DNA from: Leucoraja erinacea
Lineage: Eukaryota
Direction: 5' to 3'
Assembly: GCF_028641065.1 (NCBI RefSeq)
Contig: NC_073377.1
Coordinates: 24,180,001-24,244,000, forward strand
DNA: 64,000 nt
Shown here: one piece after another, positions 1,208 to 58,100 of the stretch
Position numbering within the stretch: position 1 is the stretch's first letter
Layout: every line of letters starts with the position of its first letter
Program-made: the position numbers and the translations under genes
Notes under the pieces: generated by a model
Seen by the model: only the letters and a program-made list of their open reading frames with translations
What the model was told of the DNA's origin: nothing
The model's database searches: none

Positions 1208-1235
1208 GACGTTTCGGGTCGAGACCCTTCTTCAG
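1208..1235 (-). ncRNA. Minimal hammerhead ribozyme motif (PLE-associated)
   Basis: CUGAAGA-A-GGGU-CUCG-ACCC-GAAACGUC; 5' helix I strand truncated. Confidence 0.55.
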
Positions 1236-1248
1236 AAAATATATAATT

Positions 1249-52100: not shown

Positions 52101-55100
52101 TTTGCATTAATAGGACTTCAACTGGGTTTTTGACCTGTCGTTAACTCAACCATAGAAAATGAAGGGATGACCTGATCGAGAAGTTTCAAATGCTATAAAT
52201 TGATAGGATAGGGAAGGACAAATCGTTTTCCTGCACAGAGAAACTAAGATGAACTAATCTTAGCGGAGAAATCAAGAGGTGTTAAATCCACATGGCAAGT
52301 GGAAATCCAAACTTTCTGAAAAAAATTAAATCTAAAACTGAACTTTAATCCACATTGAATAACATTAAGTTGACCTGTAATTCACCAACTCTTCACATGA
52401 TGCAGAAATAGCAAAATTATTTGATTCATAGCAAAAGGATTTGATTCATAGCAAAAGGATTTGAGTATAGGAGCAGGGAGGTTCTACTGCAGTTGTACAG
52501 GGTCTTGGTGAGACCACACCTGGAGTATTGCGTACAGTTTTGGTCTCCAAATCTGAGGAAGGACATTATTGCCATAGAGGGAGTGCAGAGAAGGTTCACC
52601 AGACTGATTCCTGGGATGTCAGGACTGTCTTATGAAGAAAGACTGGATAGACTTGGTTTATACTCTCTCGAATTTAGGAGATTGAGAGGGGGTCTTATAG
52701 AAACTTACAACATTCTTAAGGGGTTGGACAGGCTAGATGCAGGAAGATTGTTCCTGATGTTGGGGAAGTCCAGGACAAGGAGTCACAGCTTAAGGATAAG
52801 GGGGAAATCCTTTAAAACCGAGATGAGAAGAACTTTTTTCACACAGAGAGTGGTGAATCTCTGGAACTCTCTGCCACAGAGGGTAGTCGAGGCCAGTTCA
52901 TTGGCTATATTTAAGAGGGAGTTAGATGTGGCCCTTGTGGGATCAGAGGGTATGGAGAGAAGGCAGGTACGGGATACTGAGTTGGATGATCAGCCATGAT
53001 CATATTGAATGGCGGTGCAGGCTCAAAGGGCCGAATGGCCTACTCCTGCACCTAATTTCTATGTTTCTATGAAATCTGGATTTTGTTTGCTCCAAAAGAA
53101 AGAACTCAATTTGAAACATTACAGGCATAATGTAAAAGTGTGATGGTCATGGAACAATATTGAATACTTTTGTAACTTTGTCTACGCTATACATGGTGAC
53201 TCTTTGCATACTAGTTAATTGCATGGAAAACAAAGATTTTCACTGTACCAAGTGCGTGTGGCAAGAAAGAATCAATCAATTAATATTCAGATGGAAAGTA
53301 CCTGATCAAGCACCCCAACAACCAAAACTGGAAGACTGCTGTATAGGACATTGTAAAGGGTGATGAACCAGTTTTCATATGCAGTCTGAAAATGAGAAGA
53401 GAATACATGAGATTCCCTTAATTCTCCAAATCTTATCTTATGCTGCAACATATGAGCGAGAATGCAAATGCCTGCTTGTGCGCATGAACACATTTAGAAA
53501 CAAAAATATGAACAATTATGAACAGTATTTGCAGCAATGCAGAGCACAGAAAACATAACTACTGAAGTATTATCAACATAAATTTTTCAAAAACATAATT
53601 CATCCTGACTGGATTGGATCCCTATTGAGCACATCCCCTCAATCTAAACAACTGACATCAATATTGGTGCCTTTGTCACAGCAAGCCAATATTATTATCA
53701 TGAGGCTTGATAGGTTGAGTTAAAAAATAAGAAAGGAGCAATTACTTTAATGAGATTATATTATAGGCCAAATAGCCAATTGGGAGAGAGAGGATCAGAT
53801 GTGTAGACAGATTGCAGAAGGATGCACGAACCACAGGGTTGTTGTTGTGAGAGATTTTAGCTATGGGTTTAACTGTTCTGCTTGCTGACGCATATTGCAA
53901 AACTAAAGATGCCGCCTTGACTGAATGATTGGAGCATTGTGTACAGATATCGGTTTCTTTTTGCGTGATGTTATTATCTGTTATCTGCAGAACCAAAAGC
54001 GCCTATGAATGGGTCTGAGTAATGTAATTTAGGTGGTTTTGATAAAATTGCAACTCCCTGACTAAGCTGTTTAAGAACTAAGATATGTGCTAGTCTACAC
54101 ATACACTTGTTTGTTTGGCAGTATATAAACCCGTGCCATCTGTACTCTTGCGTGATATCACGCAATAAAGTCTCGTTCTCCATGTCCGAATCCTCAACTG
54201 ATTTCTCTGATAATCTGCCGTAGTTGCCAGGATCCCTAAAAAATGGGATCAGGACAGAGAGAACGCTGCTCGATGGAAAAAAATACTGGCCGTGACACAG
54301 ACCTGAGGCCAAATGCCAAGAGGGGGTGGGAAGAAAAATATCCCACGAGAGGAAGGGTAAGGGAAATGGGGACGAAGGACCCCAACTAAATTTAAGTAAA
54401 ATTGATTTCTCCGACAGTTCCAGTGAATGACTGTGTTCTCCAATATTGACTGGGGCTTACTCAGAGAATTAGACAGAGCGGATTTTGCTAGGTGCTTTCA
54501 AGAAGGTTTACTTGAACAGTATGTGGACAGTGCGACTCGAGAAGGGACCATACTGGACCTTGTATTGGGAAATAAGCCTGGCCAGGTGACTGGAATTACA
54601 GTGGTAGAAGAATGTGGGGATAGTGATCATAACTCCATATGTTTTAAGATTGTTTTGTTTTGGGACAGGACTGGATGATTGGGCAAAGTTAGAATGTAAT
54701 TAGGCAGGAACTAAGGAGGGTAGATTGGGATCCGTTGTTATTGGTTAAGTCCACTGAGGACATGTGGGAGAAGTGACTAGTGGGGTGCCACAAGGCTCAG
54801 CACTGGGATCCCAGCTATTTACAATATATATTGATGATTTAGATGAAGAAATTAAATGTAACATCTCCAAGTTTGCGAATGACACAAATCTGGTTGGCAG
54901 TGTGAGCTGCGATGAGGATGCTATGAGGCTGCAGGGTGACTTGGATAGGTTGGGTGAATGAGCAGTTGCAGTATAATGTAGATAAATGTGAGGTTATCCA
55001 CTTTTATATATTGAACCTCTACTTATTTTTATATATAAAAATAAATAACCTGGATGTAAAAGTAAATGGGTTGGTGAGAAAGCTTGCTGATGACACCAAT

Positions 55101-58100
55101 GTTAAAGGAGTTGCAGAAAGTGAGGAAGGTACAGGAAGATACAGCAGGATATTGCTGCAGAAATGGCAGATGGAGACTAACCAAAGCAAGCGCGAGGTGT
55201 TGCACTTTAGGTGGTTGAAAGGATGGAGAGAATACAGTCAACAACAAAACCCATAACCAGCATTGATGTGCAGAGGGATTTTGGAGTCCAATTTCATAGC
55301 ACACTGAAGATGGCTGCAAAAGTAGATAGGGTGGGAAGGCAGGCATATGGTATCCTTGCCTTAATTGCTCTGGGTATTGAATTCAAGAGTCAGGAAGTCA
55401 TGATGCAGCCATCGGACTTTGATTGGGCTGCATTTGTACCATTGTGTGCAGTTCAGGTTGCCCCATTCCAGGGAAAATGTGTTAGGTGTGGAGAGTGTGC
55501 AGTGAAGATTTGCCAATATGTTGCCTGGATTTGAGGTTTTCCGCTACAGGGAGAGATGAGAGAGACTTGATTATTTTCTTTGGAGCGTCAGAGGTTGAGG
55601 GGAGACTTTATAGAAGTAAATTATGAGGCATAGATACCGTAGACAGTCAGAACTTTTTTCCAAGCGTTGAAATGTTCAAAACTGGCGAGCATAGCAAAAG
55701 GCAACTTCAACTTGAATAAGTCACAGGATCCAAGTAGGAAAATAATTTATGGGAAGATAATTAAAGTGATGATAGCTCACCACGATAATTAAATGCTGAT
55801 ATTGAAAACGCATAATGACACATTCCAATGAACACATGGAATTATTTTCCTTTTCAGAAGCAGAGTAAAGACCCTAAATTTTACTATTCTTCACCTAACA
55901 ATCCTAACTTTTCATCTTTTTTTTCTTCTGGTTCAGTGAGCCTTTCTGGTTCTTGACATGTAAATAATCAATGCTGGTCTTTATTATTGTAAGATTTAAA
56001 AAGCTTACTTATCACATTGTATTTTTACATTTTTCCAAATAAAATGTCAGACTTCTTCCTATTTTACCTGTGCAGAAAATCCATTGAAGAAGGAATACCA
56101 AAAGTGAACTAAAGTAAATGCAAAGTTTTTGTAGAAGAAGTATTTTAAAAACTTGCACATCCGGATGTATGACCACCTCCCATGAACCAGGAGCAAACGC
56201 TGCAGGAAACGAAATTGCCCAAAAGCATAGTCACTTGACATGACTGCCTGCATGCCTTCTTGGCCACTGATCCCTACGCCAATATGAGCAGCTGCAGTAG
56301 GGAATAAACAAAATCTACTGTCATTGTCAGCTTCAATTAAACACCGCATTTTAAGCAGAAATGAACATAGTCAAACTATTGAAGGTAGACAAAAATGCTG
56401 GAGAAACTCAGCGGGTGAGGCAGTATCTATGGAGCGAAGGAATAGGTGGCGTTTCGGGTCGAGACCCTTCTTCAGACATGTACCATAGTCAAACTATTGG
56501 TGCATTAATAATCAAAAACCTTTGAAAGACACAAGATGCTGGAATAATTGAATTGGAGAAAATAGATCGGCGACGTTTCGGGTCGGGATTCTTCTTCAGT
56601 CTTACACTGGCTGGTTCAACAAAACTGTGCAGACAAAAGCCAAAATGATCACACACACACACAAGATGCGAGACAAAATAAAGTGCGGGGGTGTTTTTGG
56701 GCAGACAAGCTTTCCTTCTCTTTCTCCCCATAACCTTCTGCCCCCCTCCCCCCCAGGCTGACCCCTCCCCTCCTAAACAATTCAATCTTTGTCGATCCTC
56801 GAACTGCACCATTTGCAACTCTCTCATGCTTTTGTCTCACACCTTTGTGTTCATCTCTGGCCTCTGTCCAACCATCGCCTATCAAAACCTACCCTCACCC
56901 GCTATGACCTGCCATGCTTCAGACTGCCCCATCACTATTCCTGTCAGCTGCCATGCTTTGACAATCACCCACCCTTGCAATCAGTCTGAAGAAGGGTCCC
57001 AACCTGAAAAGTTACCTATCCATTTTCTCCAGGGTTGCTGCCTGAACGGCTGGGTTACTCCAGCATTTTGTGCTCTTTCTTGGGAAACCAGCACCTGCAG
57101 TTCCTTGTTTCTACAATTCAAAATTTTAGCAGTACTGTCTACCCTAGCTTTATTACAACCCTCTGGATTTTGGTTATAGGGGACAGAGCATCCCCACAAT
57201 AATCAGACATCACCGTCTGTTTAAGAACACAAGATACGAGTTACACAGCGCAGTCCATGAAATTAACAAACAATTGCTTTGCTGAACACTTGTGCAATGA
57301 TATTCTTTTAAACAATGTAACAAACAGCTTTTAGTATTTTTAGCTGCAGTGGGGCAGCACGTTGGCATAGAGCTACTGCCTTAAGGCCCTGTCACACTTT
57401 CCCGAGTTACTCACGAACTCTCCTGGGTTTTCCCCTTGATTCGAACTCGGGGAATGTCGCTAAAGTCGGTAGCGAGCTTGTAGTAGCGATGTTTTGTAGC
57501 GTAGATGTTTTGTAGTGGCTCGTAATGCCAGCCGTAGAAAATCGGGGCATCAGATAAGTCGGGACATTATTTTAACATATTGAAAAATGTCCACGATTTT
57601 AAAAAATAGCCCCGAATACCTACGAACGACTATTACCGTAATTTTTCGAGTTCGAATCAAGGGGGAAACTCGGGAGAGTTCATGAATAACTCGGGAAAGT
57701 GGGACAGGGCCTTTACAGCGCCAGAGACCCAGGTTTGAACCCGACTACAGGTGCTGTCTGCAGAGTTTATACGTTCTCCCCGAACAACCTATGTACCTGC
57801 ACTCCAAGATTCCTCTGCTCCACCACATTCCCAGAGCCCTATCATTCACTGCGTAGTTCCTGCCCATATTAGACTTCCCAAAGTACACCACCTCACATTT
57901 CTCAGTACTGAATTCCACCAACCATTCCTTAGCCCACCTGGCCAACCGATCAAGATCCTGTTGCAATTTTTGACATCCATCTTCACTATCTACACTTTCA
58001 TTTGCAAACTTGCTAATCATGCAATGTACGTTCGCAGCCAAATAATGATATAGATGACAAACAGCAATGGGCCCAGCACTCAACCAAGAAGCTCCACACT

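Follow-up and report, generated by a model that had tools for sequence, protein, structure and literature searches.

Are the hammerhead motifs scattered through a short stretch of skate DNA the signature of a ribozyme-bearing short interspersed element (SINE) family in its own right, and do they cut the transcripts in which they lie? The stretch in question is 64,000 nt of Leucoraja erinacea (NCBI RefSeq assembly GCF_028641065.1, contig NC_073377.1, positions 24,180,001 to 24,244,000; hereafter "the window"), which covers the genes NARS1 and part of ATP8B1. An earlier reading, made from the sequence alone, had listed 14 motifs, traced them to short repeats derived from the pseudo-long terminal repeats (pLTRs) of Penelope-like elements (PLEs), and proposed that they form a very high-copy SINE-like ribozyme family. 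We found that the repeats are most probably solo pLTRs, that is 5′-truncated ends, of a Neptune-type Penelope-like retrotransposon, each with a minimal hammerhead, and that they are likely inert and decaying neutrally. The pLTR origin was therefore borne out, and the supposed SINE-like family gave way to truncated element ends of a known kind.

Dispersed copies of the repeat

We searched the window by nhmmer with profiles built from the window copies (cut-off E < 1e−3). This gave 19 matches, 15 with hammerhead-derived sequence and 4 consisting only of the tail, which together cover 1,696 bases (2.65% of the window). All 14 motif positions of the sequence-only reading were recovered, as was one further degenerate copy at 32–74 (−), which spans helix II and ends shortly beyond the cleavage site (E = 7.7e−06), and the high density that had been claimed holds at 15 hammerhead-derived copies per 64 kb. 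Reversed or complemented controls of the profile search gave no match at E ≤ 1; an earlier profile run with an otherwise similar result gave three weak matches in its reversed control (E 1.3–9.8). The pattern CTGAWGA-N12-22-GAAAC was found 8 times in the window, compared with a mean of 0.35 and a maximum of 3 in 100 shuffles. The longer pattern given for all 14 motifs is exact in 3 of them (1208(−), 16400(+) and 46894(−)) and inexact in the other 11. An Rfam scan of the window found no hammerhead family at E ≤ 1, only sub-threshold microRNA matches on hairpins.

One other sequence, at 26185–26209 (−) (CTGATGA-A-GCA...TGC-CT-GAAA), lies head to head with a tail copy at 26250 (+) and is followed by tail-like sequence. 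It was missed by both profiles and left out of the counts, and is possibly a much older copy or a member of another PLE family.

Origin of the repeats

The end of a GIY-YIG endonuclease lies upstream of the motif in 2 of the 14 window copies. The first is a 5′-truncated element at 8540–8800 (+), with the last 26 GIY-YIG codons (8538–8615), a 92 nt spacer and a hammerhead at 8711–8738; it carries G12A, is antisense in NARS1 and is flanked by a 12 nt target duplication (8528–8539/8801–8812). The second, at 46869–47428 (−), is a 5′-truncated element with an internally deleted piece of open reading frame (ORF), GIY-YIG sequence at 47038–47337 and a 113 nt spacer; its 3′ end is lost and its hammerhead at 46894–46921 is intact (GUU, helix I of 2 bp). 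These two motifs, 8711(+) and 46921(−), had been said to follow GIY-YIG ends directly, which is right as to the copies, although pyrimidine-rich spacers of 92 and 113 nt intervene.

An endonuclease fragment at 34551–34976 (+), with no pLTR remaining, contains a GIY-YIG domain with CCHH and the linker CNRKRCNTC (CX4CxxC), and its top-ranking relatives are proteins of sharks and rays as well as full proteins with reverse transcriptase and endonuclease. A CX2-5CxxC linker marks Neptune and Nematis, not Poseidon, and is also found in Naiad (PMC8557442); the Poseidon clade, our first reading, was dropped once the linker was seen. Within the window we thus found a C-terminal GIY-YIG with CCHH and then a hammerhead-bearing pLTR, as in Neptune-type elements, together with the inverted 5′ pLTR, optional tail and target duplication of that clade. 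Outside the window, a pattern scan that covered 18 of 64 parts of a metagenome contig set gave 119 loci. Neptune-like endonuclease matches accompany 23 of these: in 18 they share the strand of the motif and end ~75–175 nt upstream, in 2 they are further away and in 3 inverted. The same kind of scan of viral contigs gave 0 matches. A zebra shark read-through gene model ends SLMKGLRPKR, matching the ten residues of the window's frame across the motif, and the motif therefore likely follows the endonuclease in sharks too.

The copies fall into two subfamilies, which the short copies share with the endonuclease-linked ones, and their 3′ ends are of two kinds ~30 nt apart, reflecting an optional tail. 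Because three are head-to-head pairs, the 14 motifs represent about 11 insertion events. With unit boundaries set by hand, target duplications of 11–18 nt were found in 6 of 14 insertion units, compared with 2 of 199 random boundary pairs. Among the features known for PLEs are inverted pLTRs, a tail confined to one end, target duplications and palindromes at junctions (PMC8557442, PMC3846280), and also two groups of 3′ ends (PMC11167929). Target duplications, paired arms, tails and the endonuclease link together therefore indicate about 11 truncated element ends and not an ordinary SINE or a tandem retrozyme.

Two of the head-to-head pairs (6636/6641 and 16390/16400) have one duplication around the pair and the ~30 nt tail on one arm only. 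The pair at 6521–6733, in the last intron of NARS1, has a minus arm with tail (6521–6636) and a plus arm without (6636–6733), both with broken cores, and a 13 nt duplication (6507–6519/6730–6742). In the pair at 16298–16525, the sense motif 16390(−) lacks the tail and its helix II is destroyed, the antisense motif 16400(+) has the tail and is fully intact, and a single 18 nt duplication with 1 mismatch (16280–16297/16526–16543) encloses the whole. The third case is an inverted pLTR with tail at 47429–47552 (+), which begins inside the core and adjoins the 46921(−) element 5′ of its internally deleted ORF piece. The 16298–16525 and 6521–6733 pairs would also form ~100 bp hairpins in NARS1 pre-mRNA (90% arm identity in the first), which are likely double-stranded RNA substrates and not ribozymes.

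The remaining motif-bearing copies are mostly single. Solo pLTRs lie at 1144–1236 (−), 2840–2936 (−) and 56382–56481 (−). The first belongs to subfamily B and lies downstream of NARS1, with core, helix II, ACGU and GUC intact in its hammerhead (1208–1235); its helix I is only 1 bp because the copy begins 1 nt before C3. The second is inserted within a long interspersed element (LINE) fragment and has a broken palindrome (ACAU) and an 11 nt duplication (2828–2838/2937–2947). The third, sense in an ATP8B1 intron, has lost the cleavage triplet (U16.1 to C) and has an 18 nt duplication with 1 mismatch (56364–56381/56482–56499). A same-strand copy 124 nt upstream of its motif 56475(−), at 56522–56602 (−), has kept GUC but has a broken helix II, and the two (56599/56475) are the only direct tandem pair of the window. 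Two longer subfamily B copies have a tail and upstream element sequence: 14195–14529 (−), sense in a NARS1 intron, with ~215 nt upstream, an intact core (14287–14314) and a broken helix II; and 56767–57110 (+), antisense in an ATP8B1 intron, with ~220 nt upstream and a broken palindrome (AAGU). The copy at 36277–36344 (+), antisense in NARS1 intron 1, has an internal deletion and a broken core. The tail-only copies are found at 4009–4093 (+), without hammerhead; 26250–26304 (+), an old copy (E = 1.4e−04); 30660–30719 (+) (E = 8e−07); and 41071–41128 (+), intergenic, which begins ~9 nt past the cleavage site and has an exact 12 nt duplication (41059–41070/41129–41140).

We considered two other classes of repeat. 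A SINE transcribed by RNA polymerase III and mobilised by a LINE was rejected: the Rfam scan found no such RNA family, and the aligned copies start with the hammerhead and finish with the PLE tail. A non-LTR retrozyme was likewise rejected, as the window has one direct pair only, with both members damaged and of different lengths.

Some observations count against an origin from a Neptune-type element. Target duplications were not seen in 8 of the 14 units. No PLE reverse transcriptase was found in the window, and no full or tandem element either, so that the linker by itself carries the clade assignment. The subfamily B copies have no adjoining endonuclease and are tied to the element by common sequence. 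All the window evidence comes from a single 64-kb stretch.

Two of the relatives of the 34551–34976 fragment deserve a separate mention. The "receptor-transporting protein (RTP) 3-like" models P0008 (from the skate Rhinoraja longicauda) and P0015 (from the shark Heptranchias perlo) fuse an RTP zinc-binding domain (PF13695) to a Neptune linker and GIY-YIG at nearly the same point, and are 54% identical over their full length. Judging from these gene models, they may represent an old domesticated endonuclease fusion in elasmobranchs. A literature search combining both terms found 0 papers. The fusion is possibly of more interest than the hammerhead repeats themselves.

The hammerhead fold

At the level of the family, the fold proves to be a genuine type I hammerhead of the minimal kind. 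The sequence-only reading had described a Penelope-type motif with a palindromic ACGU helix III, and core, helices and covariation all agree with it. The CUGANGA...GAAA core pattern is present in 8 of the 14 listed motifs, and core, helix II, ACGU and triplet are jointly present in 3. An extra A follows A9 in all 13 aligned copies, G10.1-C11.1 closes helix II in most, and the ACGU palindrome is found in the majority of both subfamilies. In the skate family helix II has 4 bp and helix I 2 bp.

Covariation was examined in 120 usable metagenome matches grouped into 37 clusters, which are not all independent, as some families are split over several clusters. The first three positions of helix I, which lie outside the search pattern, pair in 27, 32 and 30 of the 37 clusters; in slid registers the corresponding counts are 12/7/10, 2/23/6, 22/19/21 and 9/12/15. 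Both first helix I positions are Watson–Crick in 24 of 29 clusters (shuffle mean 6.05, maximum 14), a count which excludes 8 clusters whose helix III is longer by 2 nt (a class defined partly by pairing). RNAalifold recovered helices I and II unaided from 16 hand-picked sequences (7 window copies and 9 loci), and the covariation score of this alignment was 0.504, compared with 0.143 when shuffled and at most 0.123 when slid. Covariation, which the sequence-only reading had left to be looked for, is thus present, with compensatory changes in helix I across the metagenome relatives. It should be noted that the GGG/CCC pairs of helix II were built into the search pattern and are no proof of that helix; the unconstrained fourth pair is held in 30 of the 37 clusters.

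When the two skate subfamilies were compared, they differed at 0 of 19 constrained positions and at 11 of 59 positions downstream (p = 0.057). The four inter-subfamily changes inside the motif are neutral, being one in the loop, two U-G/U-A swaps and a U/C change at H17. On sequence comparison, this points to selection on the motif in the master elements.

Among the relatives, L009, L010, L017, L025, L050, L055, L086 and L001 have a variant with a 2-nt longer helix III (ACGUGU-type, self-complementary with wobbles), and L087 resembles the L050 family without the 2-nt insertion.

5′ boundary of the copies

The 5′ starts of the motif-bearing copies are sharply grouped: 10 of 14 lie within −6 to +5 of C3 (seven measured by script and three by eye), 4 extend at least 170 nt upstream, and none lie in between. 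Under an exponential truncation model, with pairs counted once and 50 windows allowed for, the probability of such grouping is ~1e−4 or less. No copy (0 of 19) starts at the cut site. Three tail-only copies begin 6–9 nt past it and could derive from cleaved RNA, which tells against purely uncut templates and makes a minor cleaved class possible. In two of three relative families the 5′ ends are grouped 16–22 nt before the core, the third being less clear, and in two of three there are two groups of 3′ ends ~45–50 nt apart. The boundary suggests that uncut transcripts beginning just before the hammerhead were the templates. The copy start falls on TCAGTCT, which fits YYANWYY, the initiator consensus, matched by 1.2% of sites. 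An ORF start in the tail was also examined, and its reading frames differ between copies.

On the main reading, the element protein would nick the two DNA strands 11–18 nt apart and prime reverse transcription internally, either ~90 or ~125 nt past C3, by analogy with the lizard Poseidon element PAc, for which internal priming has been demonstrated in vitro (PMC11167929). The cDNA would then run to a preferred 5′ end 0–6 nt ahead of the core; where both nicks serve for priming, a head-to-head pair with arms of unequal length would result. Most dispersed copies appear to derive from uncut RNA, and the ribozyme is likely selected only in tandem master elements, where it would cleave as a dimer or with the help of protein. 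As the simplest reading of the boundary we further propose, tentatively and as somewhat less than an even prospect, that the solo copies are integrated "strong-stop" cDNAs, made from a Neptune transcript whose initiator lies three bases upstream of the core and which is primed internally 90 or 125 nt downstream. If this is true, the 5′ ends of templates are preserved in a skate genome as a very large fossil record, and comparing how many ends fall at the start site and at the cut site (here 10 vs 0) would show, with DNA as the sole evidence, whether the hammerheads of Penelope elements are active in vivo.

The shared boundary might instead arise from the self-complementary stretch TCAG-T-CTGA, through fold-back or annealing of cDNA ends, or from a splice acceptor, with no transcription start involved. 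We regard this as rather unlikely, though it has several points in its favour: in several copies TCAG/CTGA pairing is the main feature of the computed dimer, two of the three head-to-head junctions fall on TCAG-T-CTGA, and palindromes at pLTR 5′ ends and self-priming have been described (PMC3846280), while a pyrimidine tract and CAG precede helix I and an intron end in D. virilis maps to the helix I start (PMC4209133). However, two relative families without the palindrome also group their 5′ ends, and no copy has an exon joined to the CAG. An origin of the short copies from spliced templates was rejected for a similar reason, as no copy joins endonuclease sequence to CAG. Either mechanism would alter how the boundary was formed and not the identity of the repeat.

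A true non-autonomous family, SINE- or retrozyme-like, with its own short master RNA starting just before the core and mobilised by the Neptune protein, is improbable. It would account for the grouped starts, the gap between −7 and −170 and the initiator-like TCAGTCT, and retrozymes have been traced to pLTRs (bioRxiv 10.64898/2026.07.22.740005). Against it, the short copies have the sequence of the 3′ ends of the endonuclease-linked copies and belong to the same two subfamilies; the aligned copies have no tandem array, tRNA or 5S head, poly(A) or simple-repeat tail; and the same boundary is explained if short cDNA was made from the 5′ terminus of the ordinary element transcript.

Decay and activity of the copies

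The dispersed copies had been implied to include active ribozymes, which we could not support. Damage was found in 11 of the 14 motifs: helix II is broken in three, the palindrome or triplet in three, and the core is broken or truncated in five. The intact motifs are 1235(−); 16400(+), an antisense motif that forms one arm of a long inverted repeat; and 46921(−), the sole intact motif that is sense in an intron, here the last of ATP8B1. We compared decay in 13 aligned copies, leaving out the badly aligned 36277. Core, helix II and palindrome deviate at 19 of 238 positions and the downstream flank at 64 of 684 (p = 0.60), so that the motif is no better kept than the rest of the repeat, contrary to what an active ribozyme had led the sequence-only reading to look for. 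Taken by themselves, the 11 catalytic core bases deviate at 6 of 135 (p = 0.065 against the same flank), a weak hint of conservation, in a set where the copies with a recognisable core are also those chosen. CpG positions, including G12 and the palindrome, deviate at 8 of 52 vs 11 of 186. Because G12 and the helix III palindrome sit in fast-decaying CpGs, genomic hammerhead counts in genomes of this kind are mostly counts of dead copies.

Depletion of the sense strand was not seen in this window, the intronic copies being 6 sense and 6 antisense. Matches to the core pattern in introns number 5 sense vs 1 antisense (p = 0.22), the opposite of depletion though in tiny numbers, and the minus strand holds 7 of the 8 core-pattern matches (p = 0.07). 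Both genes have sense copies in their introns, as had been stated, but the 1208(−) and 2905(−) motifs come after the NARS1 stop codon and three AATAAA signals.

For the three intact copies, the active double-hammerhead dimer was computed to lie 12–21 kcal/mol above the co-fold minimum, in energies which omit tertiary contacts and proteins. What disfavours the dimer is competing pairing by two self-complementary stretches, helix II and TCAG-T-CTGA. This agrees with published work on minimal hammerhead ribozymes (min-HHRs), in which monomers had no activity and dimers low activity (PMC4209133), and on the lizard element, in which cleavage was protein-dependent and dispensable for insertion, with no read ends at the cut site (PMC11167929). 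With 11 of 14 motifs broken, host RNA is therefore likely not cut, and the modelled energies also make cleavage by dispersed copies unlikely. That intact intronic copies cleave host pre-mRNA, as trans dimers or neighbour hybrids, is a very remote prospect: 46921(−) is intact and sense in ATP8B1, the strand counts above lean that way, and a formal pairing is possible between the catalytic half of 56475 and the GUC of 56599, both of them intact (helix III 3 bp, helix I 2 bp), but of the 6 sense motifs in introns just 1 is intact, with no other intact motif close by to partner it, the 56599/56475 hybrid pairs have a computed probability below 1e−5, the published motifs are inactive as monomers (PMC4209133) or need the element protein (PMC11167929), and sense copies are in excess, not lacking, which argues against harm to essential NARS1.

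Host genes and other features of the window

The host DNA is skate: one exon of NARS1 shares 99% identity with Amblyraja radiata, and the nearest matches of an ATP8B1 exon are skate and ray proteins. NARS1 (cytoplasmic asparagine-tRNA ligase) has its coding span at 4631–36759 (−), with coding exons running from 36759 to 4631. The last 8 coding exons of ATP8B1 (phospholipid-transporting ATPase IC) lie at 45935–61793 (−), and the gene extends past the window.

Several features unrelated to the hammerhead repeats were also observed. NARS1 intron 1 contains a near-perfect inverted repeat at 35222–35825 (297 nt arms, 98% complementary, 10 nt spacer) which resembles a miniature inverted-repeat transposable element, and related pieces are found at 50447–50672. 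A CCCH zinc-finger fragment (PF00642, E = 4e−06) at 38455–38930 (−), ~1.7 kb upstream of the NARS1 start codon, is folded into a 149 nt inverted repeat at 38697–38845; it resembles ZFP36-like proteins and has the look of a rearranged retrocopy or decayed paralog. A LINE reverse transcriptase (PF00078) with a 355-codon open frame lies at 62885–63952 (−) in an ATP8B1 intron, and CR1/L2-like fragments are numerous elsewhere in the window.

Comparison with known systems

The skate genome is 2–3 Gb in size, and if the density of this one window held throughout it, intact motifs would number ~1e5, above coelacanth or Xenopus. As an extrapolation from one window, such a density, if general, would exceed the 4,000–9,000 motifs per genome given for those two (PMC4209133). 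Among the matches listed in our literature searches there was no paper on skate hammerheads, which does not imply their absence from print, and skates are not named in the sections of PMC4209133 consulted.

The motif closely resembles the min-HHRs described in the pLTRs of metazoan PLEs, including Xena, Poseidon and Neptune of fish, where thousands are dispersed (Cervera and de la Pena 2014, PMC4209133). As there, it is of type I, has an extra base between 9 and 10.1, G10.1-C11.1 and a palindromic 15.2-16.2, lies in the pLTR, and occurs mostly as single dispersed motifs, with some opposite-strand pairs 100–700 bp apart in the published set. It differs from the Schistosoma motifs of that study (helix II 7–8 bp, helix I 4–5 bp) in its shorter helices.

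With the Neptune clade (Craig et al. 2021, PMC8557442) the skate element shares a C-terminal GIY-YIG with CCHH, a CX2-5CxxC linker, 5′ truncation, an inverted 5′ pLTR, a 30–40 bp tail at one end and a hammerhead in the pLTR. It departs from the clade as described there in that the window has no reverse transcriptase by which to tell Neptune from Nematis, and where target duplications were found, in six units, they are clear, 11–18 nt long, and not at microsatellites. In Anolis PAc (Frangieh et al. 2024, PMC11167929), as in the skate, two 3′ ends bracket a tail with the hammerhead ~100 nt upstream, and skate copies which keep the whole motif fit the use of uncut RNA seen in PAc. The clade is different, however, the linker being present in the skate element, and an ORF start inside the motif is not shown in the skate family. 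The sharp grouping of 5′ ends just ahead of the core, and their absence from the cut site, provide a purely computational route to whether the hammerhead serves transposition, which is left open in PMC4209133 and PMC11167929 as far as these sources bear on it.

Like the non-LTR retrozymes (Li, Clavereau, Pollet 2026, bioRxiv 10.64898/2026.07.22.740005), which that preprint reports in one chondrichthyan genome, the skate repeats are non-coding and pLTR-derived and have a type I hammerhead. Retrozymes, in contrast, are head-to-tail arrays of intact motifs, whereas the skate units are single or head-to-head, with one direct pair of damaged copies. The association of Penelope elements with hammerheads, including the extra base and the palindrome, is already published, and the skate case is an ordinary instance of it.

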